Assembly: GCA_902761695.1 (NCBI GenBank)
Contig: CACWLT010000006.1
Span: forward strand, 1-58,092
Direction: 5' to 3'
Source: an uncultured Ruminococcus sp.
GTDB lineage: Bacteria; Bacillota; Clostridia; Oscillospirales; CAG-272
Length of the DNA stretch: 58,092 bases
In this document: positions 22,004 through 55,552 of the stretch, piece by piece
Position numbering within the stretch: the stretch's first letter is position 1
Layout of the letters: the number at the start of each line of letters is the position of its first letter
Notes under the pieces: model-generated
The model's input: only the letters and a program-made list of their open reading frames with translations
Database searches by the model: none
What the model was told of the DNA's origin: nothing
Program-made: the position numbers and the translations under genes

Positions 22004-22016
22004 CGGGAGGATGATC

Positions 22017-24143
22017 ATGACACGCAAACGAATGCTTTTATGGGGAACGGTCTGCTGCCTGCTGCTGTTTTTCGCTGCCTGCCGCAAGGGGGGACCGGTG
22101 CACATTGAGCCGTCGTCGCCTGAAAACAGCCTGCCCGGCAGCACCCAGGCCGCTGCGGATGCCGGAAAGACGGAGACGCCGGAGCCCGCGGGTCCCGACT
22201 GCACCCTGGTCCGGGCGGACAACTCCTCCAAAGCCGTGACGGACGCCGCCGTTGCCCTGCGGAAGACGCTGGAGGAGATGGGGCTGACGGTGGAGCTGAC
22301 GACCGACTGGGTGAAGCGGGGCGAGGAGATCACGCGGTATCCCGGCGAGATCCTCATCGGGCGCACCAACCGGCCGGAATCCGAGGCGCTGTATGCCCGG
22401 ATGGACGAGGCGGAGGAGCCCTACGACTACATCGTCTCCGTCGGCGGGGTCATGTGCGTGGCCTGCGAGGACGAAGGGGCCATGGACGCCGCGGAGCTGT
22501 TCGCCGGGGAATACGCGAAATGGCGCGCGGGGCGGGACGGCTACGGGGATCAGGAATTCGACAGGCTCCATGAATTCGAGCGGAAGCTGGTGATCGGCGG
22601 GGAGGCCTACGTCCGGGTGAACGTCACCGGGGGCAAATCCGCGCCGGAGCAGTTCGCGGCCTCCGAGCTGAAGAAATACCTGAAAAAGATGGGGCTTTAC
22701 GAAGGGGACGGCGCGACGGTCACCCTGAATCTGGATCTGAGCCTGAGCCGGGACTCCTACGCGATAGCCGTGGGGGAAAACGGGGAGATCGCCGTCACAG
22801 GCGGCAACGGGCGGGGCGTGATCTACGGGGCCTACGCCTTTCTGGAGCGGTACGCCGGGGCGCGGTTCTTCATGCCGGGGCTGGAATCCCTGGGGAGCGG
22901 GGACATCATCGTGGACGGCGGCTTCACCCATGACATGATCTTCGAGATGCGGCAGTCCGACTGGCAGTGCGGCAACAGCGACATTGACTGGTGCGTGAAG
23001 AACGGCATAAACCAGCGGGATATCCCGGCGTCCAAGGGCGGCAATATCAAATACGGCGGGTTCGTCCACACCATGTCCTCCCTGGCGGGGACGCCGGCGG
23101 ACAAGCAGCCCTGCTTCTCGGATCCGGAGATCCTGGACACGGTGATTGCGAACGTCCGGGCCATGCTGGAACGGGATCCCTCCATCACCATCGTCTCGGT
23201 GTCCCAGAACGACAACCAGAACTACTGCACCTGCGCCAAATGCCGGGCGGTGGACGCGGAGGAGGGCAGCCACATGGGGACGCTTCTGCGGTTCGTCAAC
23301 GCCGTGGCGGAGGATATCGAAGACGACTACCCGGACGTGATCATCGACACCCTGGCCTATCAGCACACCAGGCAGGCCCCGAAGATCACGCGGCCCCGGG
23401 ACAACGTCTGCATCCGGCTCTGCTCCATCGAGTGCTGCTTCAGCCATCCGCTGAACGATCCCTCCTGCTCCGTGAACGCGGCCTTCAAAAAGGACATCGA
23501 GGACTGGAACGAGATCTGCGACCGGATCTACGTCTGGGACTACGTGACCTGCTTCTCCTACTACGTAGAGACCTTCCCGAACTTCGAGGTGCTCAGGGAG
23601 AACATGCGGTTTTTCGCGGAGCACGGGGTGAAGGGGATGTATCCCGAGGGGAACTACAATTCACCGAAGTCCGGGGAGTTCGGCGAGCTGCGGTGTTATC
23701 TGCTGGCAAAGCTCATGGCGGATCCCATGATGAGCGACGAGGACTATCACGCGTACATGGACGAGTTCCTGGCCGCCTACTACGGGGAGGGCTGGGAGAG
23801 CATCCGGGAATACATCGACTGGAGCTGCGCGCTGGCGGCGAAGAAGCACATGAACATCTGGAATCCCATGACCTCGGTGCTGGGCATCAAGCGGAGCGAG
23901 CGGGCGGAGGTCCTCTCCCGCTGGGATGAGGCCTGGGACCGGGCGGAGGCGCTGGCGGGGGACCGTCTGGACGCGGTGAAGCGCTCCCGGCTTCAATGGA
24001 CCTGCGTGAGGCTGATGTTCTCCCCCGACGCGGAAATGGCAAGGGCGTTTCTGGATGAGATCGAGCGGCAGGACATCCGCTGGAACGAATGGAACCCCAT
24101 GCCGGTGAATCCGAACCTCTCGGTCTCCGCGGCGGGGTGGTGA
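22017..24143 (+). CDS. DUF4838-like surface lipoprotein (glycan-active, function unknown)
   Basis: ATG at 22017, 6 nt after GGGAGG. MTRKRMLLWGTVCCLLLFFAAC lipobox. SQNDNQNYCTCAKCRAVD, TLAYQHT and CSIECCFSHP are motifs recalled from the DUF4838 family. About 75-80% identical over ~500 aa to the paralog at 40456. Confidence 0.6.
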   Translation: MTRKRMLLWGTVCCLLLFFAACRKGGPVHIEPSSPENSLPGSTQAAADAGKTETPEPAGPDCTLVRADNSSKAVTDAAVALRKTLEEMGLTVELTTDWVKRGEEITRYPGEILIGRTNRPESEALYARMDEAEEPYDYIVSVGGVMCVACEDEGAMDAAELFAGEYAKWRAGRDGYGDQEFDRLHEFERKLVIGGEAYVRVNVTGGKSAPEQFAASELKKYLKKMGLYEGDGATVTLNLDLSLSRDSYAIAVGENGEIAVTGGNGRGVIYGAYAFLERYAGARFFMPGLESLGSGDIIVDGGFTHDMIFEMRQSDWQCGNSDIDWCVKNGINQRDIPASKGGNIKYGGFVHTMSSLAGTPADKQPCFSDPEILDTVIANVRAMLERDPSITIVSVSQNDNQNYCTCAKCRAVDAEEGSHMGTLLRFVNAVAEDIEDDYPDVIIDTLAYQHTRQAPKITRPRDNVCIRLCSIECCFSHPLNDPSCSVNAAFKKDIEDWNEICDRIYVWDYVTCFSYYVETFPNFEVLRENMRFFAEHGVKGMYPEGNYNSPKSGEFGELRCYLLAKLMADPMMSDEDYHAYMDEFLAAYYGEGWESIREYIDWSCALAAKKHMNIWNPMTSVLGIKRSERAEVLSRWDEAWDRAEALAGDRLDAVKRSRLQWTCVRLMFSPDAEMARAFLDEIERQDIRWNEWNPMPVNPNLSVSAAGW

Positions 24144-25673: not shown

Positions 25674-27164
25674 ATGAAAAGAACGGCGGCGATGCTTTTA
25701 GCGCTCACACTTCTCGGCTCCCTCGTTTCCTGCGCGGCGCAGAAGCCGGAGGAGGAACAGAATCAGACGCCCTCCGCAGGCGTTCAGACCCAGGCGGCGG
25801 ATCCCGGAACGGAAACACAGGCTGCGCCGGAGGAAACCGTCATTCCGCTTGGCATCCCGGAGGAGGACAACGGAGGACGCGACTTCCACGTGCTCGTTCC
25901 AATCGAAAAGGCCTACGAGTTCGTCACGGAGGCCACCGGAGAGGTTGTGAACGACGCGATCTTCGAGCGGAGCAACAAGACGGCGGACCTCTTCAACATC
26001 AGCTTTTCCTATCAGTACGAGCCCGGCGGGTGGGACTACCGGGATTCCTACAACAATTTCATCAAGAACGCGGTGCTGGCCGGGGATTCCACCTACGATC
26101 TGGCAACGGGGTACATTGTCTGCACCCTGCCGGTCTACATGCAGGGCAGTCTCACGGACTTCATGACCGTGGAGGGGCTGAATCTGGACAATCCCTGGTG
26201 GATGAACGGGCTGTATGAGGACCTCAACGTGGACGGGCATCTCTTCTGCGTATACGGGGACGCCAATCTCTCCGTCTACAAGGATTGCTCGGTGATTTAC
26301 TTCAACAAGCAGGTGCTGAACGACTTCGGGCTGGAGAATCCCTACGATCTTGTCCGGGAGGGGACCTGGACCATGGAAAAGTTCCTCTCCATGGCGGAAA
26401 CGACGGTGGTGGACATTGACGGCGACACGAAGATCAATCCCGAAATCGACGCCATCGGAGCCTACGCGCAGGGGGTGCCGCTCCGGGCATTCCAGACCTC
26501 CCTGGACGTGAAGGTTATCGACACGGACGAGGCGGGGGAGCGCGTTTCTGCGGGGCTGACGGAGCGGCTGATCCAGGCTCACGAATGGGTGACGCGGTTT
26601 CTGCGGGCCGACTGCGAGTCCCTCTACGGGGAGATGAACGCGGTGGACTTCTACCAGTTCTGCCATCATCTGGCGGAGAACCGGTCCCTGTTCCACGCAT
26701 CCTACATCTACATCATCGAGGGGGACGTGATGCGGAACATGGAGGCGGATTTCGGCATCATCCCCTATCCGAAGTTCGACGAGGCCCAGGACCGGTACAA
26801 GACGCAGATCGGCACCTCCTCCAATGTGGTCTTCCTGACGAAGACGGCGGGGGATCCCTCCCTGTCCTGCCGGGTGATGGAAGCCCTGAACTACTACAGC
26901 ATGCTGGATGTCATCCCCACCTACTACACCGTGGCACTCGAGAACAAATACACGCGTGACAAGGACGTCCCCGAAATGCTGGCGCTGATCCGGGAGGGGA
27001 TGACCATGGACTTCGCCTTCGCCTACTCCACATGCTTCTCCGGTCAGTGGCCAAACACTCTGATGGTTGTGGGAGACACCGATCTGGCCTCCAAGATGAA
27101 GGGTTGGGAAAAGATGTGGAAGAAGGATCTGGAAAAGCTGGCGAAAATTCCGGAACAGCCTTGA
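25674..27164 (+). CDS. Extracellular solute-binding lipoprotein, paralog 4
   Basis: MKRTAAMLLALTLLGSLVSCA lipobox; ENPYDLVREGTWTMEKF and DIDGDTKINPE motifs. Confidence 0.8.
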   Translation: MKRTAAMLLALTLLGSLVSCAAQKPEEEQNQTPSAGVQTQAADPGTETQAAPEETVIPLGIPEEDNGGRDFHVLVPIEKAYEFVTEATGEVVNDAIFERSNKTADLFNISFSYQYEPGGWDYRDSYNNFIKNAVLAGDSTYDLATGYIVCTLPVYMQGSLTDFMTVEGLNLDNPWWMNGLYEDLNVDGHLFCVYGDANLSVYKDCSVIYFNKQVLNDFGLENPYDLVREGTWTMEKFLSMAETTVVDIDGDTKINPEIDAIGAYAQGVPLRAFQTSLDVKVIDTDEAGERVSAGLTERLIQAHEWVTRFLRADCESLYGEMNAVDFYQFCHHLAENRSLFHASYIYIIEGDVMRNMEADFGIIPYPKFDEAQDRYKTQIGTSSNVVFLTKTAGDPSLSCRVMEALNYYSMLDVIPTYYTVALENKYTRDKDVPEMLALIREGMTMDFAFAYSTCFSGQWPNTLMVVGDTDLASKMKGWEKMWKKDLEKLAKIPEQP

Positions 27165-29748: not shown

Positions 29749-31245
29749 ATGAAGATCAGAAGACTGACATCGCTCCTGCTGGCGGCGCTTCTGCTGGTTC
29801 CTGCGGCGGGGTGCTCCGAGACGGCGGAATCCTCCGATCCCGGGGAGACGGCGGCGGCGCAGATTCCGGAAGCCGTTGATGTGACGGTGGAGACGGAGCC
29901 GGAGACGAACTATGTGGACACGCTGCCCGTCATGGATTTCGAGGGGAGGCTGTTCCAGATCGGGGCGGATGCGGGCTATCACCTCTCCCCGGAAGAGCTG
30001 ACCGGCGAGACCATCAACGACGCCGTGTACAAGCAGATGACCAATACGGAGGAGCGGTACGACACGGACATTCAGGTCATCGGCGTCAACACCGGTCTGG
30101 TGAAGGCTTCCGTCAACGCGGGGGACGACGCTTACCAGATCGTCACGGGCGGGACCAGCGGGTTCGCCTCAGGGTATGTGCTGTCGAGCATGGTGCAGAA
30201 TCTGTACAAATTTGACCGGATCGACCTCACGAAACCCTGGTGGAACCAGAATTCCGTGAAGGAGCTGACCCTCAACGGCAAGCTCTACATGGCCTTCGGC
30301 GACTTCGCCTGCGAGCGCGGCATCACCTACACCCACTCCTTCTATTTCAACAAGGTGCTGGGGGAGGAGTTCAACCTGAACGAGAACATCGAGAACCTGT
30401 ACGGCGAGAAGAATATGTACGAGCTGGTCCGCTCCGGGAAATGGACCATCGACGCGCTGGAGAGCCTGATCGCCGGGGTCTATGTGGACGTGGACGGCGA
30501 CGGGGATGTGAAAAAGGACTTCGACGACCTCTACGGCCTGGGGCAGTCCATTCCCGTGTCCGGCGTATACCGCACGGCCTTCGACTGTCTGATTATGGCC
30601 CGTGACGACGAGGGCTGGCCGGTGCTGGACATCAACACGGACAAGTTCAACGCCATTGTGCCGCGTATCTATGCCCTCTGCTTTGAGAATCCGTCCGTTC
30701 TGGAGGGAGAGCACGCGGAGGAGGGGATCCTGGGCGACACCTTCGTGGCCGGGCGGCTGATGATCTATTCCGGCTTCCTCTGCGACGTGGCCAAGCTGCG
30801 GGAGATGAAGGACGAATTCGGCGTGTTGCCCTTCCCGAAGTACGACGAGGGGCAGGAGAACTACTTCACCACCGTCCGGGGGGACAACTATTTCCTGGGC
30901 ATCCCGGTGACGGTGGCCGAGGCGGACCGGGACTTTGTGGGGCTGGTGACGGAGACCATCGCCTGTTACGGCTACACCGACGTCCGCCCCGCCGTGTACG
31001 ACGACACGCTGAAGGGCAAGATGACCCGGGACGAGGATTCCGTGCAGATGCTGGACATTCTGGTGGACGGCATCGTGGTGGAGTTCGCCTTTGCCCACGC
31101 CAACGACGGCAGCTTCTCCTACGTGCTGTGGAACGTGCTGAACGCCAGACTGGACAGCTTCGCGTCGTACTACCAGAAGAAGCTGAAGGTCGCCAACAAA
31201 TACTACGAAAAGGTCAACAACGTGTACAAGTCCATGGAGGACTGA
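29749..31245 (+). CDS. Extracellular solute-binding lipoprotein, paralog 5
   Basis: MKIRRLTSLLLAALLLVPAAGCS lipobox; NMYELVRSGKWTIDAL and DVDGDGDVKKD motifs. Confidence 0.8.
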   Translation: MKIRRLTSLLLAALLLVPAAGCSETAESSDPGETAAAQIPEAVDVTVETEPETNYVDTLPVMDFEGRLFQIGADAGYHLSPEELTGETINDAVYKQMTNTEERYDTDIQVIGVNTGLVKASVNAGDDAYQIVTGGTSGFASGYVLSSMVQNLYKFDRIDLTKPWWNQNSVKELTLNGKLYMAFGDFACERGITYTHSFYFNKVLGEEFNLNENIENLYGEKNMYELVRSGKWTIDALESLIAGVYVDVDGDGDVKKDFDDLYGLGQSIPVSGVYRTAFDCLIMARDDEGWPVLDINTDKFNAIVPRIYALCFENPSVLEGEHAEEGILGDTFVAGRLMIYSGFLCDVAKLREMKDEFGVLPFPKYDEGQENYFTTVRGDNYFLGIPVTVAEADRDFVGLVTETIACYGYTDVRPAVYDDTLKGKMTRDEDSVQMLDILVDGIVVEFAFAHANDGSFSYVLWNVLNARLDSFASYYQKKLKVANKYYEKVNNVYKSMED

Positions 31246-35229: not shown

Positions 35230-35850
35230 TCAGGCCTTCAGCATTTCGCGGACGCGGTCGGCGATGATTCCGGCCTGGATATCGATGGCTTCGGCTCGGA
35301 AGTGAAAGGTGTCCGACCAGTACCGCTCCCGGTCCAGGGGATCCATGGCGGAGAACAGGTCGATCACGGGCAGATTCTGCTCCCGGGACAGGCGCAGGAC
35401 GGTCTCGTTCAGGGAAGCCGATATGGCGGTGAGGGCGGGATCCTTCAGGGGCGTGGAGAGGGTCAGGGCCAGCTTCGTCTCCGGGAGCTTCGCGCGGATG
35501 AACGCAACAGAGGAGGCATAGGCCGCGTCCCACTCCGCCCGGGCCGTGGTCAGGCTGTGGAGGCCGTTGTTGAAGCAGACCGCGTCATAGGGGCGGGCGT
35601 CCAGCATGAAGTCCAGCTCCCGGAAATAGTCCGGGTCTGTCACGCACTTGGAGGACGCCCAGAAGGAGACGTTCACCTCCCCGGCCAGCTTGTCCCGGAC
35701 GGCGCCGTTATAGCCGTTGCAGATGGAATCCCCGATGAGGAGGACCCGGGGGCGGCTCTCGTCCAGGGTGTCATAAGCGTATGTGATGCTCCATTCGATG
35801 CCTTCCCGTTTCCGGGAGGTGGAGCGAGGCGCAAAATCCTGCCATGTCAT
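35230..35850 (-). CDS. SGNH/GDSL hydrolase (carbohydrate esterase-like)
   Basis: ORF trimmed to MTWQ at 35850 (GGAGGA 7 nt upstream); VLLIGDSICNGY (block I), FNNGLH (block III), DTFH (block V). Confidence 0.75.
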   Translation of the reverse strand: MTWQDFAPRSTSRKREGIEWSITYAYDTLDESRPRVLLIGDSICNGYNGAVRDKLAGEVNVSFWASSKCVTDPDYFRELDFMLDARPYDAVCFNNGLHSLTTARAEWDAAYASSVAFIRAKLPETKLALTLSTPLKDPALTAISASLNETVLRLSREQNLPVIDLFSAMDPLDRERYWSDTFHFRAEAIDIQAGIIADRVREMLKA

Positions 35851-35943
35851 AGGGATATCCTCCATTGCGGCTGATGAATTGCGGGTTGGTTCCTCTATGC
35901 GGAACGCGGGCTTCTTTGGGGGAATTCGTGAAAGTCCCTTATG

Positions 35944-35972
35944 ATTGTAACACAATCCGGGAGATCCGTCAA
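35944..35972 (-). promoter_or_regulatory. Minus-strand SigA-type promoter with extended -10 for the SGNH gene
   Basis: Read on the minus strand: TTGACG (35972-35967), 17-nt spacer, TGTTACAAT (-10 at 35949-35944). Confidence 0.55.
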
Positions 35973-35979
35973 GGTATCC

Positions 35980-36051
35980 GGCGGAACGCTCGGCGGAACG
36001 CCCGGCAGAATGCCCGGCAGAATGCCCGGCAAAGTGCCTGGCAGAATGCCC
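35980..36051. repeat. Tandem array of six 12-nt units (consensus GGCAGAATGCCC), each an internal GGCA-N3-TGCC palindrome
   Basis: Units: GGCGGAACGCTC, GGCGGAACGCCC, GGCAGAATGCCC, GGCAGAATGCCC, GGCAAAGTGCCT, GGCAGAATGCCC. The array lies between the -35 boxes of two divergent promoters. Confidence 0.9.
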
Positions 36052-36170: not shown

Positions 36171-37418
36171 ATGGACATGGAGAGGAAAGCAGTGAAACAG
36201 GTCATTTTGCGGTTTATGGCATGCAGCGATCTGCACTACAAGAACGATCCCGCCTGCCGGGAGAAAAAGCGCTTCGAGGAGGGGCTCCGCCAGCTGTATG
36301 CCTACGCGGATTCCCAGCCGTACAAAGCCGTAGATGCGGTGTACATCGTTGGGGATTTCACCGATCAGGGCACCATGGAGCAGATGACGCTGGTGAAGGA
36401 GTCCCTGGACCGGGGACTGCGGCCGGGAACGGAGGCGGTGCTCTGCATGGCGTCCCACGAATACGGCGGTCCGGGCGGACAGACGGGGGCGCGGGAGCGG
36501 TTCGGACAGATCTTCGGGCAGGACGCGGACACCCATCGCGTCATCCGGGGGTTTCACTTCATCGCCGTGTCCACGGACGAGGACTGCCGGTTCTGGGAGC
36601 CGCAGGTTTCCTTTGCCGCCGGAGCCCTGGAGGCTGCGCACGAGGATGATCCCCGGCGGGCGGTCTTTTTCTTCCAGCATCCCCATCTCACGGACACGGT
36701 GTACGGAAGCATCGTATGGGGGGAGCGGGACCTGAATCCGACCCTGTACAACTATCCGCAGGTCATCGATTTCTCCGGCCACTCCCATGTTCCGATCAAC
36801 GACCCGCGCTCCATCCATCAGGACTATGTCACGTCGGTGGGCACGGGAACCTTCAGCTATTTCGAGATGGACGAGTTCGACAAGATCTGCGGTACGTTTC
36901 CGCCCGACGCTGGGGAGGCGGCCCAGATGCAGATTGTGGAGGCCTTCGACGACGGCAGCGTGCTGATCAAGCCCTGGGATGTGCTCACGGGGCAGCCCTT
37001 CCACGAAGGATGGACGGTGGAGCGGCCCTGGGATCCGGCGTCCTTCGTCTACACGCGGCCCATCCGGTACCGGTTCGCGGAGAATCAGAAGCCCCGGTTC
37101 CCGGAAGGCGCGGTCCTCACGGCGGAGCAGACGGAGGCGGGCTTCAGGCTGACCTTCGATCACGCGGAGAAGGTGATGGGATCGGACGGCAGGGAAGAAG
37201 ACGTGGACGACTACGTCATTACGGTCCGGGACGGGGACGGGATCCTGTGCCGCCGGTTCGTGATCTGGTCGCCCTATTACCTGACGCGGCGGCCGGAGAA
37301 GATGAGCTACGATTTCCCGAAGCTGAAAAAGGGCGTCTACACCGTGGCGGTGAAGGCCCGGGGTTTCTGGCGCAACGAATCGGAGGACTGCCTCAAAGCG
37401 GAGCTGATCGTTGAGTGA
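36171..37418 (+). CDS. Calcineurin-like metallophosphoesterase with a C-terminal beta-rich domain
   Basis: FMACSDLH, VGDFTDQG, SHEY, FFFQHPH and FSGHSHVP motifs. The true start may be the GTG at 36192 (GGAGAGGA upstream). Confidence 0.7.
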   Translation: MDMERKAVKQVILRFMACSDLHYKNDPACREKKRFEEGLRQLYAYADSQPYKAVDAVYIVGDFTDQGTMEQMTLVKESLDRGLRPGTEAVLCMASHEYGGPGGQTGARERFGQIFGQDADTHRVIRGFHFIAVSTDEDCRFWEPQVSFAAGALEAAHEDDPRRAVFFFQHPHLTDTVYGSIVWGERDLNPTLYNYPQVIDFSGHSHVPINDPRSIHQDYVTSVGTGTFSYFEMDEFDKICGTFPPDAGEAAQMQIVEAFDDGSVLIKPWDVLTGQPFHEGWTVERPWDPASFVYTRPIRYRFAENQKPRFPEGAVLTAEQTEAGFRLTFDHAEKVMGSDGREEDVDDYVITVRDGDGILCRRFVIWSPYYLTRRPEKMSYDFPKLKKGVYTVAVKARGFWRNESEDCLKAELIVE

Positions 37419-37598
37419 ACTAATCTCAATCTAAAAGGGAAACGCGGCTTCTTGAAAGAAGCCTGGCAAGAACTTTCAAAATACCCTGGTGCAGCTTCCT
37501 CTCAAAATGCAGCACGGGGTAACGTACAGCGCATTTTTCAGGTTCTGCTTTTTCACACGCCTTTATCAGATTTCCCTTTATAGCTGAGACAAGTATGA
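37416..37598 (+). mobile_element. MITE-like TIR repeat, copy C (183 bp, compact form)
   Basis: TGAACTAATCTCAATCTAAAAGGGAAACGCGGCTTCTTGAAAGAAGCC… where the TGA is the upstream stop codon. Same 27-nt core. Right end TTTCCCTTTATAGCTGAGACAAGTATGA is the inverted left end. Confidence 0.8.
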
Positions 37599-40380: not shown

Positions 40381-40455
40381 CGGGACGCAGCGGTGGAGAG
40401 AGGAAAAGCAGAACCATTGAACCCATATACGGGTATAAAAACGGAGGATGGAATC

Positions 40456-42018
40456 ATGGGAAGAATGATCGTCAAGGGCAAGGAATTTGCCGCCGCGCGG
40501 GTCCTTTGCGGGGACAGCGCTCCTGAGAACTACGCGGCATCCGAGCTGCGGAAATACCTCGCCATGCTGGGGATTCCGGAGGGGGACGGCGCGGCTGTCT
40601 CGATCCGGGAGGACGCCTCCGTCGGACGGGACGGGTACGCGGTATCCGCCGGGGAGGACGGGGAGATCACCATCGCGGGGGGGAACGGACGGGGCGCCAT
40701 CTACGGGGTCTACGCTCTGCTGGAGCGCTGCGCCGGGGTGCGGTTCTACATGCCCGGGGTGGAGAAGACCGGCGGGGACACCGTGGAGGTGAAGGAGGAC
40801 TTCGCGCACACCCCCGTCTTTGAGATGCGGCAGTCCGACTGGAGGTGCGGCAACGGCAGCGCGGACTGGTGCGTGAAGAACGGCATCAACCAGCGGGAAC
40901 TGCCGAAGGAGATGGGCGGGCACATCAAGTACGGCGGGTTCGTCCACACCATGACCGGTCTTGTGGGGACGCCGTGGGATGAGCAGCCCTGCTTCAGCGA
41001 TCCCGAGGTGCTGAAAAAGGCCATTGCCGGAGTCCGGGCCATTCTGGAGAAGGATCCGGACGTGAAGATCGTCTCCGTGTCCCAGAACGACAACCAGAAC
41101 TACTGCAAATGCGAGAAGTGCCGGGCCGTGGACGAGGAGGAGGGCAGCCACATGGGGACCCTGCTCCGCTTCGTGAACGCCGTGGCAGCGGACATCGCGG
41201 AGGACTACCCCGACGTGGTGATCGACACACTGGCTTATCAGCACACGCGGAAGGCGCCGAAAATCACGAAGCCTCTGCCCAACGTCTGCATCCGGCTCTG
41301 CTCCATCGAATGCTGCTTCAGCCATCCGCTGGACGATCCCACCTGCCCGGTGAACGCCGCGTTTTATCGCGACATCGTGGAGTGGAACAGGATCTGCGAC
41401 CGGATCTACATCTGGGACTACGTGACCTGCTTCCCCCACTACATCCCCACCTTCCCGAACTTCGGCGTGCTGCGGAAGAACATGCGCTTCTTCGCGACCC
41501 ACGGCGTGAAGGGCATGTATCCCGAGGGCAACTATCAGTCGGAGCAGTCCGGGGAGTTCGGCGAGCTGCGGTGCTGGCTGCTGGCGAAGCTGATGATGGA
41601 TCCCATGATGAGCGAGGGGGAATACCTCGGTCACATGGACGACTTCCTCGAGGGCTACTACGGCGCGGGGTGGCGGTATATCCGGGCTTACATCGACTGG
41701 ACCGTGTCGGAGGCGGCGGGGGCGCACATGAACATCTGGAATCCGCCCTTCGTCACCATTCCGCGGGAGAAGTACGCCGCCATGGAGGAGACCTTTGATC
41801 TCTGGTGGGACAGGGCGGAGGAGGCGGCCGGCGACCGGATCGAAGCGGTGAAGCGCTCGCGGCTCCAGTGGCGGTACATCAAGCTGATGCTCCATCCGGA
41901 CGCAGAGGTCGGGAAGGCCTTCTTCGAGGAAGTGAAGGAGCAGCGGATCCGGTGGAGAGAGGTCCAGGAGCTTCCGGAGCATCCGGACTTCGCCGCGTCC
42001 CCGGAAACCTGGCGGTGA
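40456..42018 (+). CDS. DUF4838-like protein, cytoplasmic paralog (no signal peptide)
   Basis: ATG at 40456 (ACGGAGGA upstream). Shares SQNDNQNYCKCEKCRAVD, TLAYQHT and CSIECCFSHP with the lipoprotein paralog at 22017. Nucleotide identity appears roughly 85% across the core, by eye. Confidence 0.6.
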   Translation: MGRMIVKGKEFAAARVLCGDSAPENYAASELRKYLAMLGIPEGDGAAVSIREDASVGRDGYAVSAGEDGEITIAGGNGRGAIYGVYALLERCAGVRFYMPGVEKTGGDTVEVKEDFAHTPVFEMRQSDWRCGNGSADWCVKNGINQRELPKEMGGHIKYGGFVHTMTGLVGTPWDEQPCFSDPEVLKKAIAGVRAILEKDPDVKIVSVSQNDNQNYCKCEKCRAVDEEEGSHMGTLLRFVNAVAADIAEDYPDVVIDTLAYQHTRKAPKITKPLPNVCIRLCSIECCFSHPLDDPTCPVNAAFYRDIVEWNRICDRIYIWDYVTCFPHYIPTFPNFGVLRKNMRFFATHGVKGMYPEGNYQSEQSGEFGELRCWLLAKLMMDPMMSEGEYLGHMDDFLEGYYGAGWRYIRAYIDWTVSEAAGAHMNIWNPPFVTIPREKYAAMEETFDLWWDRAEEAAGDRIEAVKRSRLQWRYIKLMLHPDAEVGKAFFEEVKEQRIRWREVQELPEHPDFAASPETWR

Positions 42019-42151: not shown

Positions 42152-43648
42152 ATGACCGAACTTCAGAAGCGCGCCCTTTCCCTGATTCTCGTCCTCGCCC
42201 TTGCCGCGCCGGGGCTGACCGCCTGCAGCGAAACGCAGCCCGAAGCGCAGCAGCAGAACGCCGTCTCCCCGGCCGCGGAGGAAGCGGTGACCGGGACGCC
42301 CGAGACCGAGCTCACCCGGGAGAACACGCCGGATACCCTGCCGGACGATCTGGATTTCGGCGGGGAGACCTTCACCATCTACTACTCGAACGGCTTCAAC
42401 TGGTCGGGGCAGATCGAGGGCGGGGAGGAGCTGACCGGGGACGTGGTGCCCGACACGGTGATCCAGTGCAACCAGTCCGTGGCCGAACGCCTCAACATCG
42501 ATCTTGAGTACTATCCCGAGAATTCCGGCGACTGGAGCACCATCAACACGCTGGTCAGCAATCTGATCATGGCAAACGACGCCACCTACGACGTGTTCAT
42601 GGGCGAGCAGTACGGCCTGACCCAGACGGCGGTCAAGGGCTACTACCGCAACGCGCTGGAGCTGCCGTACTTCGATTTCGATCAGCCCTGGTGGAACGTC
42701 ACCTTCATGGAGAACCTCCAGCTGACGGACGACTACCGCATGTTCCTGACGGGGGATTTTAATCTGACCACCCTCTGCCAGCTCTTCGTGCAGTACTACA
42801 ACAAGGCGGTCTACTCGAATCTCTTCGGCAATCCGGACGATCTCTACCAGACGGTTTTGGAGGGGAACTGGACCATCGACAAAATGAGCGAGCTGATTGC
42901 CTCCTCCTACATCGATCTGGACGGGAACGGAAAGCTCACCCCCGAGGATCAGCTGGGATACGTGGCCTACAAGACCTTCTCCACCGTGGACCCGTTCATG
43001 TACTGCGCCGACATCCCCTACACCTCCCGGGACGACGAGGGCAGAATCGTCATCGACATGAACCAGGAGCGGGCCGTGACCCTGACGGAAAAGGTGGTGC
43101 ACCTCTTCAATCAGGAGGGGGCCTACACCGAGGGGACTGATTCCTTCATGACCGGGGGAGCCCTGTTCTGCGCCGGGCTTCTGCGGACGGCCGAGAACTT
43201 CCGCGACATGGAGGATGACTTCGGCTTCCTGCCCTCCCCGAAGCTGGACGAGAGCCAGGAGCACTACCGGAATCTGGTGGGGGACTGCAATCTGTTCACG
43301 GTGGTTCCCGTCACCTCGACAAGAGCGGAAATGGCGGGGGCCGTCCTCGAGGCCCTGAACGCCCAGACCTACCGGACCGTTTTGCCGGCCTGGTACGAGG
43401 TCACGCTGAAATGCAAGTACTCCCGGGACCTGATCTCCTCCGACATCATCGATCTGATCCACGATTCCATTTACACGGACTTCCTCTTCGCCTACTCCCC
43501 CATGGTGAGCCAGATGGGGCAGGTCATGCGGGATCTGGTGACGAACAACAACACCAATTATATGTCGAACGTGGCCTCCAAGGAAAAGGCGGCGGCCAAG
43601 TCCCTGGAGCGGATGTACAAGGAGCTGGACAAGAACCGGAATCCGTAA
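42152..43648 (+). CDS. Extracellular solute-binding lipoprotein, paralog 6
   Basis: MTELQKRALSLILVLALAAPGLTACS lipobox; DDLYQTVLEGNWTIDKM and DLDGNGKLTPED motifs. Confidence 0.8.
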   Translation: MTELQKRALSLILVLALAAPGLTACSETQPEAQQQNAVSPAAEEAVTGTPETELTRENTPDTLPDDLDFGGETFTIYYSNGFNWSGQIEGGEELTGDVVPDTVIQCNQSVAERLNIDLEYYPENSGDWSTINTLVSNLIMANDATYDVFMGEQYGLTQTAVKGYYRNALELPYFDFDQPWWNVTFMENLQLTDDYRMFLTGDFNLTTLCQLFVQYYNKAVYSNLFGNPDDLYQTVLEGNWTIDKMSELIASSYIDLDGNGKLTPEDQLGYVAYKTFSTVDPFMYCADIPYTSRDDEGRIVIDMNQERAVTLTEKVVHLFNQEGAYTEGTDSFMTGGALFCAGLLRTAENFRDMEDDFGFLPSPKLDESQEHYRNLVGDCNLFTVVPVTSTRAEMAGAVLEALNAQTYRTVLPAWYEVTLKCKYSRDLISSDIIDLIHDSIYTDFLFAYSPMVSQMGQVMRDLVTNNNTNYMSNVASKEKAAAKSLERMYKELDKNRNP

Positions 43649-46072: not shown

Positions 46073-47548
46073 ATGAAAAAGCAGCTTTCACTTCTGCTGG
46101 CTCTTCTGACGCTCCTGCCGTCCCTGGCGGCGTGCGGCGAAAGCGAGGTCAACACGGAGGAGGAGACGACCTCCGTCCAGAGCAGCGAAGTGGTTTCCCC
46201 CGCGGAGACGGAGCCCCCGGAGACGGAGCTGCCGCTGCCCGAGGCCGATTACGACGGATACGAGGTCCGCGTGCTGAACAACATCTCCAACTTCGCCTAC
46301 ACCAACATCGGCGAGGAGGGGCTGACGGGCGAATCGCTGGACGACGCCGTCTTCAACCGCAACAAGACCGTTGAGGACAAGCTGAACGTCACCTTCACCA
46401 TCGAGAAGCGGGAGTACTACGACACCCGGGATACCATCACGAAGGTGGTGTCCGCCGGCGAGGACGTCTACGATTTCTACACCTGCGACCTCAACATCCT
46501 GCTGGGCCACGCCATGAACGGGTACGTCCTGAACGCGAAGAACGTGGACACCCTCCAGTTCGATCAGCCCTGGTGGAACAAGCAGGCCATCGATTCCGTC
46601 TCCATCGGGGACGCGGTCTACGGCTTCTTCGGGGACCTGCACACCGGGTACTTCGAGAGCCACAACGTGGCGGCCTTCAACAAGCGGATCCTGACCGACC
46701 TGAACCTGTCCGATCCCTACGAGCTGGTCCGCAACAACGAGTGGACGCTGGATAAGATGATCGTCATGATGGACGCGGCGAAGATGGATCTGGACGGCGA
46801 CGGCAAATGGACGGTGGAGGATCAGTACGGTCTCTCCATGTTCCAGGGCAACTGGTCCCTGGCCTTCATCACCGGCGGAAACGCCTTCATCGTGCAGAAG
46901 GACGAGAACAACCTGCCCGTCTGGAATGGTATCAGCGAGCGGTTCCTGACGATCTTCGAGGCGGCGGCGACGGGCATTTTCGACGAGAACACCAACAACG
47001 CCATCAACGCCCGGGGCACCCTTCCCGGAGATCTGGAGCTTTACCGGCTGATGTTCATCTACGACCGGGTGCTGTTCCTGGTGACGCAGATCGGCGTTCT
47101 GAAGAACATGCGGGACGTGAATTTCGAGCTGGGCGTCGTTCCGTCCCCGAAATTCGACCAGACCCAGGAGAACTACGTATCCCTCATCTTCCAGGGGGCC
47201 AACGCGGTGGGCATTCCGCTGACCAATCCCGACGCGGAGCGCACCGGCGTGGTGCTGGACTATCTGGCGGCCATGTCCACCGACACCGTCCGCGACGTCT
47301 ACATCAACCAGACCCTGGACTTCAAGTACATTCAGGACCAGGAGAGCCAGGAAATGCTGGACATCATCCTGTCCACGGGCACCTTTGAGATCGCGGCGGT
47401 TTACGACTGGGGCGGCATCGCGGGGCAGGTCATGACGCTGCTCAACGCGGGCAAGACCACGCTGGCGTCCACGGCGGCCAAGCTGGAGAAGCGGGTCGTG
47501 AAGGCGATGGAGGAAACGGTCGACACCTTCTCCAAGGTGGGGCAGTGA
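46073..47548 (+). CDS. Extracellular solute-binding lipoprotein, paralog 7
   Basis: MKKQLSLLLALLTLLPSLAACGESE lipobox; SDPYELVRNNEWTLDKM and DLDGDGKWTVED motifs. Confidence 0.8.
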   Translation: MKKQLSLLLALLTLLPSLAACGESEVNTEEETTSVQSSEVVSPAETEPPETELPLPEADYDGYEVRVLNNISNFAYTNIGEEGLTGESLDDAVFNRNKTVEDKLNVTFTIEKREYYDTRDTITKVVSAGEDVYDFYTCDLNILLGHAMNGYVLNAKNVDTLQFDQPWWNKQAIDSVSIGDAVYGFFGDLHTGYFESHNVAAFNKRILTDLNLSDPYELVRNNEWTLDKMIVMMDAAKMDLDGDGKWTVEDQYGLSMFQGNWSLAFITGGNAFIVQKDENNLPVWNGISERFLTIFEAAATGIFDENTNNAINARGTLPGDLELYRLMFIYDRVLFLVTQIGVLKNMRDVNFELGVVPSPKFDQTQENYVSLIFQGANAVGIPLTNPDAERTGVVLDYLAAMSTDTVRDVYINQTLDFKYIQDQESQEMLDIILSTGTFEIAAVYDWGGIAGQVMTLLNAGKTTLASTAAKLEKRVVKAMEETVDTFSKVGQ

Positions 47549-47609: not shown

Positions 47610-49138
47610 ATGAAAAAAACAGTTTCACTTCTGCTGGCGTTTTTTCTGCTTCTGACATCACTGGCGGCCTGCGGGGAGAGCGAAGAGAACGCGGGGACCG
47701 ATAACGCGGGATCCGTACAGTCCGGCGGCGACGGCAATCCTTCCGCGGAAACGGAGGCGGAGACCGAATCCCCCACGCCGAACTGGGACGTTGTCTCAAA
47801 GACGGATCTTGGCGGGATGGACATTATTGCCACCACCAACGACTTCGATTCCAACTTCTACAACGTTCTGGACTGGGACGAGATCACCGGGGACAATCTG
47901 AAGGACGCCATGTACAACCGCAACCGGGCCGTGGAGAGCGCGCTGAACTGCGTCTTCTCCGTGGTCTACGGCGGCGGGACCGGCATACTGGAAAAATCCG
48001 TCTCGGCGGGAAGCGGGGACGTGGATTTCGCCTACAACCTGGTCAGCGCGGGCGGCGGACTGATCCAGAAGGGGTATCTCTCGCCCTTCGACATGCTGGA
48101 CAACATCGACATGACGAAGGCGTACTGGGATCAGGGCGCGCAAAAATACCTCCGGATCCTCGGGAAGATGTATTTCGGCTTCGTCGAATCCTGGGGAAGA
48201 TGTATTTCGGCTTCGTGGATTTCGGCTTCGACCACTACGACTCCCTGGCGGTGCTGTTCTACAACGGCAAGCTGGTGACCGACTATCAGCTGGAGGATCC
48301 TCAGGAGATGGTGCTGGAGGACACCTGGACCATCGACAAGATGTCCGATCAGATCGCCGCGGTGCTGACCGACGTCAACGGGGACGGGAAGTACACGCTG
48401 ACGGAGGACGTATTCGGTCTGACGGGCCGGGAATACTGGTTCCAGCCCTTCCTGAACCGCTCCGGCGAATACCTCATCACCTGGGACGACAAGGCGGAGA
48501 ATTTCGTGCTCCACATGACCGACGACCGGTTCGTGCGGGTGTCCGAGGTGATCACCTCCATCTACAGCAGCCAGAATCCGGCGACGGACTACTCCGACTA
48601 TGACAAGGGGCGCGTCGCGTTCTCCGAGGGACGGTCCCTGTTCTACTTCCGCCTGCCGGGCGACTTCCGGCAGCTGCGCGAGGTGGAGGACGACTACGGC
48701 GTGGTGTGCTTCCCGCGGTATGCCGAGGACGGCGGCAATTCCTCCTATTTCGTGAAGAATCCCACGACCCTGTATCTGCCCACGGTGGTCTGCGATGCCA
48801 ACGGGGACGGGCGGCAGGACTACGACGAGATCGGCGCGTTCCTCGAGGCCATGGGCGCGTACACGTACGACAACACGCTGGACGTCTATCTGGAGAACAC
48901 CGTCATCGGCAAGGGCATGCGGGACGAGCGGTCCGCAGACATGGTGCGGCTGATGATGAAAAACCGCTCCTTCGACCTGGGCGAGGCCTTCAGTCTCCAC
49001 GACGTGATGGACATTTACCGCCTTGCCGTCATCAAGGGAGAGGGTCTGGCCTCCAGCGAGCAGAAGGCGGAGAAGTTCTTCAACCGGCTGACGTCCAAGA
49101 TCGTCGACAAGATCCGGGAATTCGATATCGGAAACTGA
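47610..49138 (+). pseudogene. Solute-binding lipoprotein, paralog 8, frameshifted by a 32-bp tandem duplication
   Basis: ORF 47610..48278 (MKKTVSLLLAFFLLLTSLAACGESE…LGKMYFGFVESWGRC…*) and ORF 48200..49138 (MYFGFVDFGFDHYDSLAVLFYNGKL…). Removing one repeat copy restores a single frame reading …ILGKMYFGFVDFGFDHYD…. Confidence 0.75.
48156..48219 (+). repeat. 32-bp direct tandem duplication (2 mismatches) inside the SBP gene
   Basis: 48156-48187 ATCCTCGGGAAGATGTATTTCGGCTTCGTCGA; 48188-48219 ATCCTGGGGAAGATGTATTTCGGCTTCGTGGA. Confidence 0.9.
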
Positions 49139-51987: not shown

Positions 51988-53235
51988 ATGAACAGGAAGA
52001 ATTTTGCGTTTGACGGATCCATGACGAGAGAGGTGCTGGAAAACTACCTCTCCCGGGCTGTCACCCACACGGGGCTGACCTACGACAACATGGCGCCCTC
52101 CCGCACCTTTGCGGATGATCTCCGGATGCTCCTTTCCGAAGGGGCGAAGTTCGTGGGGCGGTGCGGGCTGATCTGGCAGGCGACGGACGAAAAAGAGCAC
52201 CGCCGGGTCTCGAGGGAGAGAGCGGAGATCATCCACCGGGCAGATCCCGAGATCATCCTGCAGGGCTGTATTTTTGAATGTATCTGGAAGCCCTACATCG
52301 ACAGCCTGCCCGTTCCCGCATGGGTGTTCGAGGCGTTCGGCCTGCCTGTTGAAGCGCGGAATTTCAGCTACGACGCCATGCTCTACCCGGACGGCACATT
52401 TGTGAATCACTGGGGGATAAACGGCGGATCGGTGGAGGACATCCGGCAGCTCGAGACCCGGATGTACATCTATTACCGCGCCCGGTGCTACATCGACGAC
52501 GGGTTCGAGGCCCTTCACTTCGGGCAGGTCCACCTGATTGGGGCGAAGGACGAGGGCTTCCTTTACTGGAAGGAGACGCTGGACCGGGTGCGAGCTTATG
52601 CGAAAGAACACGCCCGGCGGCATTTCGTCCTCTGCGACGCCCACACCCACGGGATCACCGTGGACGGCGTGTCCCTCTTCGACTACAACGCATGGCCCCT
52701 GCGATTGAAGGAGATCCCGGATCAGCCGCTGGCCTGCGTGCTGGAGGAAGGGTACAACGACAGCATCTGGGGACGGTCGAAGGGCGGCATGACTCCTTCT
52801 GGATGGTACGCAGACTCCCTGCCGTATCTGGTGGAGTTCGACAACTTCGGCAGACGCCCGGACGCCCCGGTGCCGACCCTCGACAGCCACTACGCCTGGG
52901 GCTACGACGAGATCGACTGGCTCATGCTGCACAAGAAGGAGGAACGGGCGGCGATCATCCGGTATGTGTACGATTTCGTCCGGGCACACGGCGGGCACCT
53001 GGAAATGCCTTCCCGCCGCTGTCTGACGGAGGAGTATGAATCGGTCTGGGCGCACCCGGACACGGACTGGCTGGACCGGGTGGCGAAGGACGAATTCCTG
53101 CGGTACACGGTGGACGAGGACGGAAACGCGCACATCCTCCGCCGGTATTACAGCGCGAACAACCCGTCGGACGGCTGTCCCTTCGGGCTGGGCGACGAGG
53201 AGATTATCACGGAGCTCTGGCGCGGGGAAGAATAA
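51988..53235 (+). CDS. Hypothetical 415-aa cytoplasmic protein (possibly TIM-barrel glycan-active)
   Basis: Long ORF in the coding frame of a GH island, with no recognisable motifs. Its TAA stop lies inside the terminal repeat of MITE copy D. Confidence 0.3.
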   Translation: MNRKNFAFDGSMTREVLENYLSRAVTHTGLTYDNMAPSRTFADDLRMLLSEGAKFVGRCGLIWQATDEKEHRRVSRERAEIIHRADPEIILQGCIFECIWKPYIDSLPVPAWVFEAFGLPVEARNFSYDAMLYPDGTFVNHWGINGGSVEDIRQLETRMYIYYRARCYIDDGFEALHFGQVHLIGAKDEGFLYWKETLDRVRAYAKEHARRHFVLCDAHTHGITVDGVSLFDYNAWPLRLKEIPDQPLACVLEEGYNDSIWGRSKGGMTPSGWYADSLPYLVEFDNFGRRPDAPVPTLDSHYAWGYDEIDWLMLHKKEERAAIIRYVYDFVRAHGGHLEMPSRRCLTEEYESVWAHPDTDWLDRVAKDEFLRYTVDEDGNAHILRRYYSANNPSDGCPFGLGDEEIITELWRGEE

Positions 53236-53388
53236 TACTATTCTCAGTCTAAAAAGGAAATTTGAATAAGGTATGGGAAAGCAGAACCTGAGAAAATGAG
53301 TTGCACGTTACCCCGTGCTGCACTTTGATAAGGTCCGGGCTTCCCTTTCAAGAAGCCGCGTTTCCCTTTTAGCTTGAGATTGGTATTA
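53233..53388 (-). mobile_element. MITE-like TIR repeat, copy D (156 bp, internally shortened, reverse orientation)
   Basis: Plus-strand ends are TAATACTATTCTCAGTCTAAAAAGG … CCCTTTTAGCTTGAGATTGGTATTA. The core variant is GTGCAGCACGGGGTAACGTGCAACTCA on the minus strand. Both flanking convergent stop codons lie within the termini. Confidence 0.8.
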
Positions 53389-54546
53389 CGCTTCCGCCCC
53401 GAGGACGGCGGCGTAGGCGGTGTTGCGGATCATGCCGTGCCATTCGTACCACTTTGATCCGGCCTCCTGCTGGGCGTAGAAGATGCCGACGCCGTTTTCC
53501 GGGTCCGCCAGCAGATAGCAGCCGAGAGCTCCGTCCCAGCCGAACTCCCCGTTGGCGCTTAAGGAATTGTTCCGCTCCCGGCAGAGCAGGGTCCGCACGC
53601 CCAGACCGTAGCCGTAGCCCGCCTTGCTCCAGCCGCCCATGGCCTCGAAGTCCCGCATGGCGTCGGGGTTCAGCTGATTTTCGCGCATGGCGTCGACGGA
53701 TTCCGGGGAGAGCACGCGTACCCCGTCCGCCGTGACGCCCCGGTTGGAGAGCATGGCGGCCAGCTTCGCGTAATCACGGAGGGAGGAGATCAGCCCGCCG
53801 CCTCCGGAACGGTACGCGGGTCCCATGCCCATGTCCACGCCCTCCTTGCGGATCACGGCGCGGGCAGTCCCCATGGCTCCGTCAAAGCCGTGGATCTCGG
53901 GGGCCATGCGGGACCGCTGCTCCTCCGTCAGCACGAAGGTTGTATCCGTCATGCCGAGGGGATCGAAGAGCTCCCGGCGCAGTACGTCGGGGTAGGGAAT
54001 GCCCGCCGCCGCCTCCATCACCGCCGCCAGCACGTCGTGGCAGAAGCTGTACCGGAAATGGGTCCCCGGCTCAAAGGCCAGAGGCTCCGCGACAAGGGCC
54101 GCCGCGACCTGCCGGGTGGTGGGGCGTCCGTTCGTTTCCCGGATGAGGTTCTTCACGGCGGCGGTGGTGCCGTCGTAGGTGAGGCCCGCCGACATGGACA
54201 GCAGGTGGCGCACCGTGATGGAGATCCGGACGGGATGAACCTCTCCGTCCTCTCCCCGCACTGTCGCCCGGTCCAGCTCCGGGAGCCATTCCGCCGCCGG
54301 GGCGTCCAGCGTCAGGATTCCCTTCTCGATCAGCCTCACGGCGGCTGCGGCGGTGGAGATCTTGGTGGCGGAATAGAGGTTCACCAGGGTGTCCGGTCCG
54401 AAGGGAATCCCCCGCTCAAAGTCCGCGAATCCGGCGCAGTGCTCGTGGACGGTTTTCCCCCCGACGGTGACGGCGCACCCAAGGCCGGGGATGTTCTTCT
54501 CCCGGTAAAAGCTGTCGAGATACCGGTCCAGAGCGGTAAAATTCAT
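53386..54546 (-). CDS. Beta-lactamase-family serine hydrolase (class C/esterase type)
   Basis: ORF trimmed to MNFTALDRY at 54546 (GAGGAGGAAGG upstream, ATGA overlap with the upstream stop); LYSATK is an SxxK motif. Confidence 0.7.
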   Translation of the reverse strand: MNFTALDRYLDSFYREKNIPGLGCAVTVGGKTVHEHCAGFADFERGIPFGPDTLVNLYSATKISTAAAAVRLIEKGILTLDAPAAEWLPELDRATVRGEDGEVHPVRISITVRHLLSMSAGLTYDGTTAAVKNLIRETNGRPTTRQVAAALVAEPLAFEPGTHFRYSFCHDVLAAVMEAAAGIPYPDVLRRELFDPLGMTDTTFVLTEEQRSRMAPEIHGFDGAMGTARAVIRKEGVDMGMGPAYRSGGGGLISSLRDYAKLAAMLSNRGVTADGVRVLSPESVDAMRENQLNPDAMRDFEAMGGWSKAGYGYGLGVRTLLCRERNNSLSANGEFGWDGALGCYLLADPENGVGIFYAQQEAGSKWYEWHGMIRNTAYAAVLGAEA

Positions 54547-55511: not shown

Positions 55512-55552
55512 GATGATGGATCCTTTCGTTTCGGGCTTGCGGTGCCGTTCCC

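Follow-up and report, generated by a model that had tools for sequence, protein, structure and literature searches.

The pneumococcal repeats BOX, RUP and SPRITE are short, non-coding and mobile, and they are over-represented between convergent genes, near the 3' ends of coding sequences; 36 genes take their stop codon from a BOX element, and SPRITE combines a hairpin with a U-rich tract in the manner of a Rho-independent terminator (PMC3049150). The Correia elements of Neisseria and the ERIC elements of Enterobacteria and Yersinia are transposable elements of the miniature inverted-repeat kind (MITEs) with terminal inverted repeats (TIRs). They are transcribed together with the genes next to them, and their RNA stems affect the processing of mRNA (PMC3049150, PMC10969869). 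The effect of ERIC depends on orientation, and some Correia and ERIC elements carry promoters or terminators (PMC3049150, PMC10969869). QMITE2 of Coxiella burnetii is reported mainly from the 3' untranslated regions (UTRs) of open reading frames (ORFs) (PMC10969869). A 2024 review of prokaryotic MITEs calls the formation of terminators 'conceivable' and mentions neither stop codons nor orientation (PMC10969869). In this report, we describe a family of small repeats present in five copies in a 58,092-nt stretch of DNA from an uncultured Ruminococcus sp. (contig CACWLT010000006.1 of assembly GCA_902761695.1; 'the window' refers to this whole stretch). It is a real MITE family of rumen Clostridia, active or recently active and apparently undescribed. 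We put at roughly 85% the probability that the element is moved in trans and that, thanks to its T-N-A target, it can land on stop codons without harm.

Duplicated targets and an empty site

A preliminary description of the window had reported five copies of an element with imperfect inverted termini, all starting within 7 nt of the stop codon of a gene on the same strand. Sequence matching and a MAFFT alignment of the five regions confirm every copy in position and strand. The intervals, as in that description, run from target-site duplication (TSD) to TSD:

1686-1888, + strand: copy c1; TSD TAA at 1686-1688 and TAA at 1886-1888; the element itself spans 1689-1885 and has a divergent left end, TGCTAAATCC
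3079-3272, + strand: copy c2; TSD TAA at 3079-3081, the stop codon of the GH43 (glycoside hydrolase) gene 2200-3081, and TAA at 3270-3272; element proper 3082-3269
37416-37598, + strand: copy c3; TSD TGA at 37416-37418, which ends the metallophosphoesterase gene 36171-37418, and TGA at 37596-37598; left terminus 1 nt short (ACTAATCTCA)
53233-53388, - strand: copy c4; 150 nt, middle segment absent; left flank TAA (53388-53386), the stop codon of the beta-lactamase-fold gene 53386-54891 (- strand)
56523-56722, + strand: copy c5; left flank TGA at 56523-56525, the stop codon of the esterase gene 55503-56525; right flank TAG at 56720-56722 (degenerate TSD)

The aligned regions have a common left end, a common right end and common internal blocks, and their shared termini are imperfect inverted repeats, as had been proposed. 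A profile hidden Markov model (HMM) built from the five copies recovers all five (E 1e-43 to 1e-67). The 27-nt core is likewise real, with five matches at up to three mismatches and none in 100 shuffled sequences, but the word 'invariant' does not apply to it: three copies match it exactly, c3 differs at one position and c4 at three. The terminal T[A/G]A, previously taken for the end of the element, is rather a 3-bp TSD lying outside it. Read in the orientation of the element, the left and right flanks are TAA/TAA for c1 and c2, TGA/TGA for c3, TAA/TTA for c4 and TGA/TAG for c5. The elements are AT-rich, as had been noted (G+C 42-48%, against 55-66% in the 300-nt flanks and 62.7% in the whole window). 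They contain no credible ORF, being overlapped only by tiny or run-through ones, and Pfam scans of 45 window ORFs, which omitted one short called gene (8879-9394), found no transposase, again in agreement with the preliminary description.

Gene calls place the left end of all five copies near the stop codon of a same-strand gene, and in four of them (c2, c3, c4 and c5) the left TSD is the stop codon itself. The gene upstream of c1 (150-1679) stops at TAA 1677-1679, and the target is the next in-frame TAA, 6 nt downstream. By Pfam scans, the genes upstream of the five copies are mutually unrelated. The claim that the element always abuts a stop codon is true of the window, but family-wide it holds for only about one third of the sites.

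Copy c4 is not one simple insertion: two convergent genes end at it, each with its stop codon as one of the flanks (the right flank is the + strand TAA 53233-53235, which ends gene 51988-53235), and its middle segment is missing. With flanks that do not match, it is a composite or rearranged copy, and two insertions followed by a deletion, or a like rearrangement, may be the simplest history. The orthologous insertion in locus L077 has the flanks TAA|TCA. The insertions of c3 and c5 recur in the metagenome loci L056 and L082, respectively.

Across all the loci gathered for the family, T-N-A flanks 130 of 143 distinct insertion sites (TGA 55, TAA 40, TTA 20, TCA 15), or 128 T-N-A sites after merging orthologues. 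The left and right triplets are identical in 54 of the 79 full copies (TGA/TGA 22, TAA/TAA 19, TTA/TTA 7, TCA/TCA 4), with all four central bases represented. A TGA on one side goes with a TGA on the other, not with a TCA, which marks a direct duplication rather than a longer inverted repeat. Duplications had been named as something to look for, with TA as a plausible target; they are present, but as 3-bp T-N-A.

An empty site had been proposed as something to look for in relatives, and an exact one exists for c2. A look-up of the exact GH43 protein (2200-3081, 293 aa) returned the window's own scaffold (cattle-rumen assembly ERZ28613096, scaffold_879, 58,795 bp) and a 2.3-kb contig, L155, from another rumen assembly. 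This contig encodes an identical GH43 followed by …GGAGTGGAGA TAA GTCGTTTTGGGAACAGGAGAAGCATC ATG, with 26 nt to the start of the GH95 gene, and the window reads …GGAGTGGAGA TAA, the 188-nt element, TAA GCCGTTTCGGGAACAGGAGACACATC ATG. That is, L155 is the c2 allele minus the element and one TAA (…GAGA TAA GTCG…). The two alleles show an insertion into the stop codon that duplicated TAA and left both the ORF and the downstream ribosome-binding site intact; they prove the element to be mobile DNA that was inserted. A second, partial empty site is found in the rumen metagenome-assembled genome RUG12348 (L005), where the gene orthologous to 51988-53235, at 91% nt identity, has its end at the corresponding codon and is not followed by the element. 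Exact-protein look-ups of the genes adjoining c1 and c5 returned no records, and for c3 the sole additional contig terminates inside the element. Small size, lack of coding content, TIRs, a fixed-length TSD, dispersed copies and a precise empty site together uphold the MITE-like reading of the preliminary description, and none of the outcomes that it had named as refuting was observed.

Anatomy and distribution of the family

The element proper extends from TACYAATCTCA to TGAGAATAGTA, and its termini can be searched for as TACYAATCTCAAGCTAAAAGG. Imperfect TIRs of about 22 nt are present in all copies (TACYAATCTCAnnCTAAAAGG … CTTTTTAGnnTGAGAATAGTA). Full copies are non-coding and measure 150-408 nt, with modes at 180, 196, 211 and 232. 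The left TIR is followed, in every copy of all subfamilies, by hairpin 1 (GGCTTC-TTGAAA-GAAGCC). Hairpin 2 is variable: it can be absent, consist of one to three tandem 15-nt units AGGCAT-AAA-TGCCT, or read GAGCAGC-AAG-CTGCTC or GCTCAAC-AAG-TTGAGC, and this variation accounts for the size classes of 180, 196, 211 and 226. A conserved small ORF starting from the TTG in hairpin 1 was considered and rejected, as its frame is lost between size classes.

Subfamily A, to which the window copies belong, continues from the left module with CTGGTGCAGC, a spacer and the core. In the window, these parts are:

56549-56600, + strand: left module of c5, with hairpin 1 GCGGCTTC-TTGAAA-GAAACC and hairpin 2 GAGCAGC-AAG-CTGCTC (from the alignments)
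56632-56668, + strand: conserved subfamily-A core in c5, hairpin GTGCAGCACG-GGGTAA-CGTACAGCGCA followed by TTTTTT
from 1796, 3192 and 37507 (+ strand) and from 53323 (- strand): core in the other window copies, same hairpin and T-run

Judged by its sequence, this core resembles a sense-strand intrinsic terminator, i.e. a hairpin followed by a T-run. In the commonest (180-nt) subfamily it would fold as GTGCA-GCACG-GGGTAA-CGTGC-AG-TGCAC directly before TTTTT (-15.1 kcal/mol), which is the G+C-rich hairpin abutting a T-run expected of such a terminator. The likeness is weaker in the window copies, which have CGTAC in place of CGTGC and reach only about -8 kcal/mol, and a simple terminator scanner made no sense-strand call for the core in c1, c2, c3 or c5.

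Subfamily B (about 39 distinct copies, 218-316 nt) has the same ends and the same left 60 nt as subfamily A and a different cargo of 130-200 nt, …GCACACCAATATAGCCATCCAACCTTATCAGAGTTATCG…GAGCTCA-(variable hairpin)-TTCGC…GCGATCAAAACCCAT. Invariant stretches alternate here with hairpins whose pairing survives three to six double changes; in some copies, the variable hairpin has taken up a large insertion. This cargo may be a structured RNA that the transposon carries along. Examples, beside about 35 more, are:

L086, 6752-6988: subfamily B copy
L148, 9057-9296: subfamily B copy
L078, 4864-5118: subfamily B copy
L055, 4477-4797: subfamily B copy
L031, 3788-4010: subfamily B copy

A scan of one genome per species with an 18-nt core gave 34 loci. 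Of these, 29 lie in RUG12348 (an 'uncultured Ruminococcus sp.' with 61% G+C), many of them at contig ends, and one lies in RUG13279; the remaining four, in Proteobacteria and Planctomycetes, are not recognized by the HMM and were set aside as chance matches. Scanning metagenomes with a left-end pattern found 119 stretches that carry the element. Plasmid and phage collections (searched by blastn) and viral contigs (searched with the TIR pattern) gave no match to the element. Nor does it belong to a described Rfam family, and such a match is what the preliminary description had said would undo its reading: the window had no hits at the gathering threshold, c5 gave only chance matches with E>2 when searched at E<=10, and in nine loci with A and B copies the only hit was a 5S rRNA gene, with nothing on the element. 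One locus, L052, has a 5S rRNA gene at 53-169 (Rfam, 86.7 bits) and a copy of the MITE from 339, 170 nt downstream, at a TAA; this copy is interrupted after the core by other sequence.

Placement at stop codons and how to explain it

With the elements masked, genes were called by the GC3>GC1>GC2 signature that marks this lineage of 62% G+C. A co-oriented ORF whose GC3 is of the coding type has the left TSD as its stop codon at 44 of the 130 sites (34%; 42 of 128 after merging orthologues). Stop codons make up 10.4% of the non-coding T-N-A triplets in the same loci, or 5.2% per orientation, and the excess is about six-fold (p ~1e-18 to 1e-22). In other words, the bias towards co-oriented stops first noted in the window extends beyond it, at 44/130 against about 5% expected. 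TAA is over-used about 2.5-fold relative to TGA (23:21 at occupied stops, 169:384 in the background). TAG stops are rare in the element-bearing loci (15 of 637 in about 0.9 Mb, by these gene calls), so about 98% of stops are T-N-A and eligible as targets.

More broadly, surviving copies are almost confined to places downstream of genes, be it between convergent genes, at stops, or just past the T-runs of terminators. Of 77 convergent intergenic regions 36 hold the element, as do 18 of 246 tandem ones and 1 of 47 divergent ones; these figures are a contrast between region types and not absolute rates, since the loci were selected for carrying the element. Many of the non-stop sites are directly past a terminator T-run. 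The flanks have T-runs on the left in 15 cases and A-runs in 1, and on the right A-runs in 14 and T-runs in 4.

The association is also strongly oriented. Both ends are visible in 71 copies; in 22 of these only the left end coincides with a stop, and in 3 only the right end does (p=1.6e-4); restricted to copies with a perfect TSD, the figures are 18 and 1. Insertions at stop codons are some seven to nine times more often co-oriented with the gene than opposite to it. Both subfamilies are stop-associated (A 21/71, B 20/42), with no right-end cases in B.

We propose that a DDE-type transposase encoded elsewhere moves the element in trans, by a cut-and-paste or copy-and-paste reaction that would involve a 3-bp staggered cut of the target. 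The T-N-A triplet at which the element inserts is found duplicated on both sides. A stop codon used in this way costs the upstream gene nothing, as the empty site shows for c2: TAA and TGA both fit T-N-A, and an intact stop remains after the duplication. Placement on the 3' side of genes would follow from the presence of T-N-A in a T-rich/A-rich micro-context, together with the loss of insertions that damage coding or promoter DNA. As for the orientation bias, we lean towards orientation-dependent selection on the read-through transcript. In one orientation, transcription may end before the second arm of the TIR, and in the other a long double-stranded TIR stem might invite cleavage. Orientation-dependent effects have been described for ERIC, and cleavage by RNase III for Correia elements (PMC3049150).

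Several observations weigh against this account. First, the DDE class and mobilization in trans are read from the TIRs and the TSD only, because no autonomous partner was found: a search of about 1 Mb of loci for TIR pairs at a spacing of 450-4000 bp, and for 11-mer inverted repeats between matching T-N-A triplets at 600-3500 bp, turned up nothing but pairs of separate MITEs. The autonomous insertion sequence (IS) with matching TIRs that the preliminary description had suggested seeking is absent from these loci, from viral contigs, from plasmids and from phages, and as the search covered sample loci and not complete host genomes, this is absence from the sample and not from the host. Second, uniform choice of T-N-A within the convergent regions that hold an element would already hit either stop in about 34% of cases. 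A good part of the stop excess therefore comes down to geometry and to the avoidance of DNA that bears promoters, an argument that leaves the orientation bias unexplained. Third, a passive model of harmless sites does not by itself predict a strong orientation bias, and since the bias is common to subfamilies A and B, the terminator-like core of subfamily A is not its cause. Finally, 17 of the 18 youngest (near-identical) copies have a purine-centred TSD, though only 6 of the 18 are at stops.

Three further candidates were rejected in the course of this weighing. One was locus L037 as a source of the parent: there, the left 43 nt of a copy are followed by foreign DNA, which is an IS110-family insertion without TIR or TSD. 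The IS110 element (about 1504-3100, with a transposase ORF at 1751-2974 on the - strand; Pfam DEDD_Tnp_IS110 3.5e-29, Transposase_20 8.8e-19) sits inside the MITE, in the loop of hairpin 1 (…GGCTTCTTGAAAG^CCTGC…). IS110-family elements home to repeated hairpins. The second was replication direction as the cause of the orientation, which is excluded by c4, a copy that runs opposite to the other four and is still co-oriented with the gene it abuts; in convergent regions, too, it is the left end that lies at the stop. The third was an outward promoter at the right end of the 180-nt subfamily (TTGACA-17-GAGAAT), which is missing from the other subfamilies, the window copies and subfamily B. As it is not conserved, it cannot explain a shared bias.

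The strongest alternative is that orientation is fixed at insertion, by a transposase or host factor that recognizes the 3' ends of genes. We consider this doubtful, though it accounts for a number of the observations, and what probability neither it nor selection on the transcript takes up goes to something else. The excess lies at the stop codon itself and not across the 3' UTR (24 sense cases at distance 0), the bias is shared by two subfamilies that have only the termini and the left 60 nt in common, it is 18 to 1 among copies with a perfect TSD, and TAA is preferred to TGA. Young copies are at stops as often as older ones (6/18 against 18/53). Their 17:1 skew towards T-R-A hints at an intrinsic asymmetry, absent from the older copies; the young copies belong mostly to the 180-nt subfamily (e.g. 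L070, L095, L120, L151, L027 and L145), and in the older set the ratio of purine to pyrimidine is 40:13. A further hint of asymmetry is that at non-stop sites the left flank is richer in G+C than the right (54% against 43% over 10 nt, p=0.012). On the other hand, a comparison of 44 occupied with 553 unoccupied stops found no extended or asymmetric motif (all positions p>0.03, uncorrected), and the flank preference cannot set the orientation because it is palindromic. The idea that purines are intrinsically preferred in the middle of the TSD was rejected as well, given that the non-stop sites (purine 51, pyrimidine 35) look like the 56:44 background of sense-strand 3' regions. Moreover, a reading frame cannot be read by a DNA transposase. 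A more specific version, in which intrinsically polar machinery picks the frame-ending T-R-A, e.g. through the step in composition from coding to intergenic DNA or through a gene-end factor, seems to us unlikely. If it were true, the family would be a 'stop-codon-homing' transposon that delivers, in a fixed orientation, a 3'-UTR cassette (terminator or structured RNA). The 2024 review has no account of a stop-codon-homing MITE in prokaryotes (PMC10969869).

Slightly less credible than oriented insertion, in our view, is that the element is a domesticated 3'-UTR module, retained because, once transcribed in sense, it benefits the upstream gene. It could serve as a portable terminator, as a stabilizing 3' hairpin, or, by its left hairpin and U-rich tract, as a block to convergent antisense read-in. 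The subfamily-A core fits such a role, with a hairpin of 9-10 bp directly before T5-6 on the sense strand and a base of the stem at which a G-C pair is exchanged for A-U between subfamilies (GTGCA…TGCAC vs ATGC…GCAT). Predicted folding is also slightly more stable for the sense strand (-55.4 kcal/mol) than for the antisense (-53.2 kcal/mol; 38/51, p=0.0015), several pairs of the TIR stem are G·U on the sense strand only, and the stems of hairpins 1 and 2 are preserved in the alignments despite wholesale replacement of their sequence. These features point only weakly to constraint on the RNA, because the copies are close relatives, and conservation and apparent covariation would largely reflect descent. 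Copy c1 lies between a stop codon and the native terminator at 1907-1934, with a promoter (TTGACA-17-TATAAT, 1964-1992) further downstream; it must therefore be transcribed, as part of the 3' UTR. SPRITE and BOX provide precedents (PMC3049150). Against domestication, subfamily B lacks the terminator-like core and is even more often at stops, and a benefit to the upstream gene would not demand contact with the stop codon. In addition, the core hairpin of the window copies is weak, and c2 and c3 lie between co-directional genes (the empty allele of c2 being a 26-nt operon junction), where an efficient terminator would be harmful; the weakened hairpin would fit with tolerance inside operons.

Very improbable, by comparison, is a non-mobile cis-regulatory RNA of the downstream gene (riboswitch, attenuator or leader) or a small RNA gene. 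Three near-palindromic GTGCAGC motifs could form alternative pairings before the T-run, and four window copies have a co-directional gene downstream; but the exact empty site and the TSDs speak of insertion, Rfam has no matching family, the downstream genes are unrelated, 36 of 56 copies elsewhere lie between convergent genes and so have nothing downstream to regulate, and c4 lies between two stops. We give almost no credence to another type of gene-3'-end repeat (integron attC, an IS200/IS605 palindrome-associated element or REP/BIME), which would share the imperfect terminal inverted repeats and the place just after co-oriented ORFs, given that the flank triplets covary as a true duplication not produced by IS200/IS605 or by attC recombination, that the TIRs are long (22 nt, in elements of 150-316 nt, against REPs of 20-40 nt), that the termini (TACYAATCTCA / TGAGAATAGTA) have no RYYYAAC/GTTRRRY and the Pfam scans no integrase in the window, and that the flanking genes are catabolic operon genes of 300-900 aa and not cassettes.

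The proposed MITE moved in trans would be an unusually clean case of a mobile element that sits flush against genes and does no harm, as its duplicated target is the stop codon. Targeting of T-N-A stops also offers a simple mechanistic reason why small repeats in bacteria 'encode' stop codons and crowd the 3' ends of genes. The oriented stop-codon association is the sole feature that might raise the family beyond an ordinary MITE: as a bias common to two cargo subfamilies, it would imply either selection on read-through RNA or polar insertion. The modular cargo suggests that 3'-UTR parts spread in this way through rumen polysaccharide-utilization loci. In practical terms, the element breaks assemblies, with copies at contig ends, and it could be mis-annotated as a regulatory RNA.

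Surroundings of the element and comparison with known systems

The window is a polysaccharide-utilization region. Pfam matches include GH2, GH3, GH5, GH20, GH29, GH31, GH43, GH95 and DUF4838, together with esterases, a LacI-type regulator, a PfkB kinase and kinases. Scattered among the glycoside-hydrolase genes are seven paralogous genes for lipoproteins of about 500 aa, with a signal peptide and Cys, common motifs PEELTGE..NDA.YN and FG..P.PK.D, and no Pfam match. They are probably sugar-binding proteins of ABC importers:

150-1679: lipoprotein paralogue
11161-12633: lipoprotein paralogue
25674-27164: lipoprotein paralogue
29749-31245: lipoprotein paralogue
42152-43648: lipoprotein paralogue
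46073-47548: lipoprotein paralogue
47610-49138: lipoprotein paralogue, apparently split by a frameshift (47610-48278 / 48200-49138)

Two DUF4838 paralogues (21912-24143 and 40393-42018) are 74-79% identical in nucleotide sequence over several hundred bases, which would indicate that part of the glycan-utilization cluster has been duplicated. Between c1 and the GH43 gene, the segment 1964-2176 has a perfect TTGACA-17-TATAAT promoter with an upstream TG, followed by a lipoprotein-like ORF of 50 aa (2024-2176) that is called as a gene in the public assembly. At 35978-36049, in the divergent region between 35230-35955 (- strand) and 36171-37418 (+ strand), there is a tandem 12-nt unit (CCGGCGGAACGC and variants, about six copies).

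Another MITE, unrelated to the first, also occurs in the collected loci; it measures about 225-247 nt, ends in TATAGCAATCCGCTCAAATACTCG…CTGAGTATTGCTATA and seems to duplicate TA:

L032, 6669-6915: second MITE
L018, 1499-1721: second MITE
L031, 6237-6431: second MITE
L038, from 3814: second MITE
L096, 1-105: second MITE
L140, 195-419: second MITE
L023, 1-95: second MITE
L153, 2896-3120: second MITE

In at least 10 of 17 matches it is nested in the first MITE, where it repeatedly uses two particular TA dinucleotides of the TIR (ACTA^ATC and CCTA^AAAAG), an enrichment biased by the choice of loci for carrying the first MITE. Its reuse of these dinucleotides looks like target specificity. As a control for placement by selection only, the second MITE proved unusable, most of its copies being nested in the first.

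Turning to the described systems, a 3-bp T-N-A duplication is typical of some IS5-family groups (IS1031/ISL2-type), and TWA of the eukaryotic 'Tourist' MITEs of PIF/Harbinger. IS5-type and PIF/Harbinger elements are related, within the PHIS superfamily (PMC4482050). MITEs derived from either are like the rumen family in TIRs, 3-bp T-N-A TSD, small size and, as proposed here, mobilization in trans; no transposase or autonomous element with the rumen termini was found in the loci and collections searched.

Among the elements known for their effects on transcripts, Correia and ERIC duplicate TA, and a coincidence with stop codons is not reported for them. QMITE2 shares the 3'-UTR setting but differs in sequence and host, and a stop codon serving as TSD is not described for it in the 2024 review (PMC10969869). 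The closest parallel in behaviour is with BOX, RUP and SPRITE. There is no sequence relationship, and the hosts are Streptococcus on one side and high-G+C rumen Clostridia on the other. Yet placement, supply of stop codons, a terminator-like hairpin and nesting are all found in the rumen MITE too. What the rumen family adds to these repeats is that its link to stop codons is explained by the 3-bp T-N-A TSD, and that its orientation bias is quantified.

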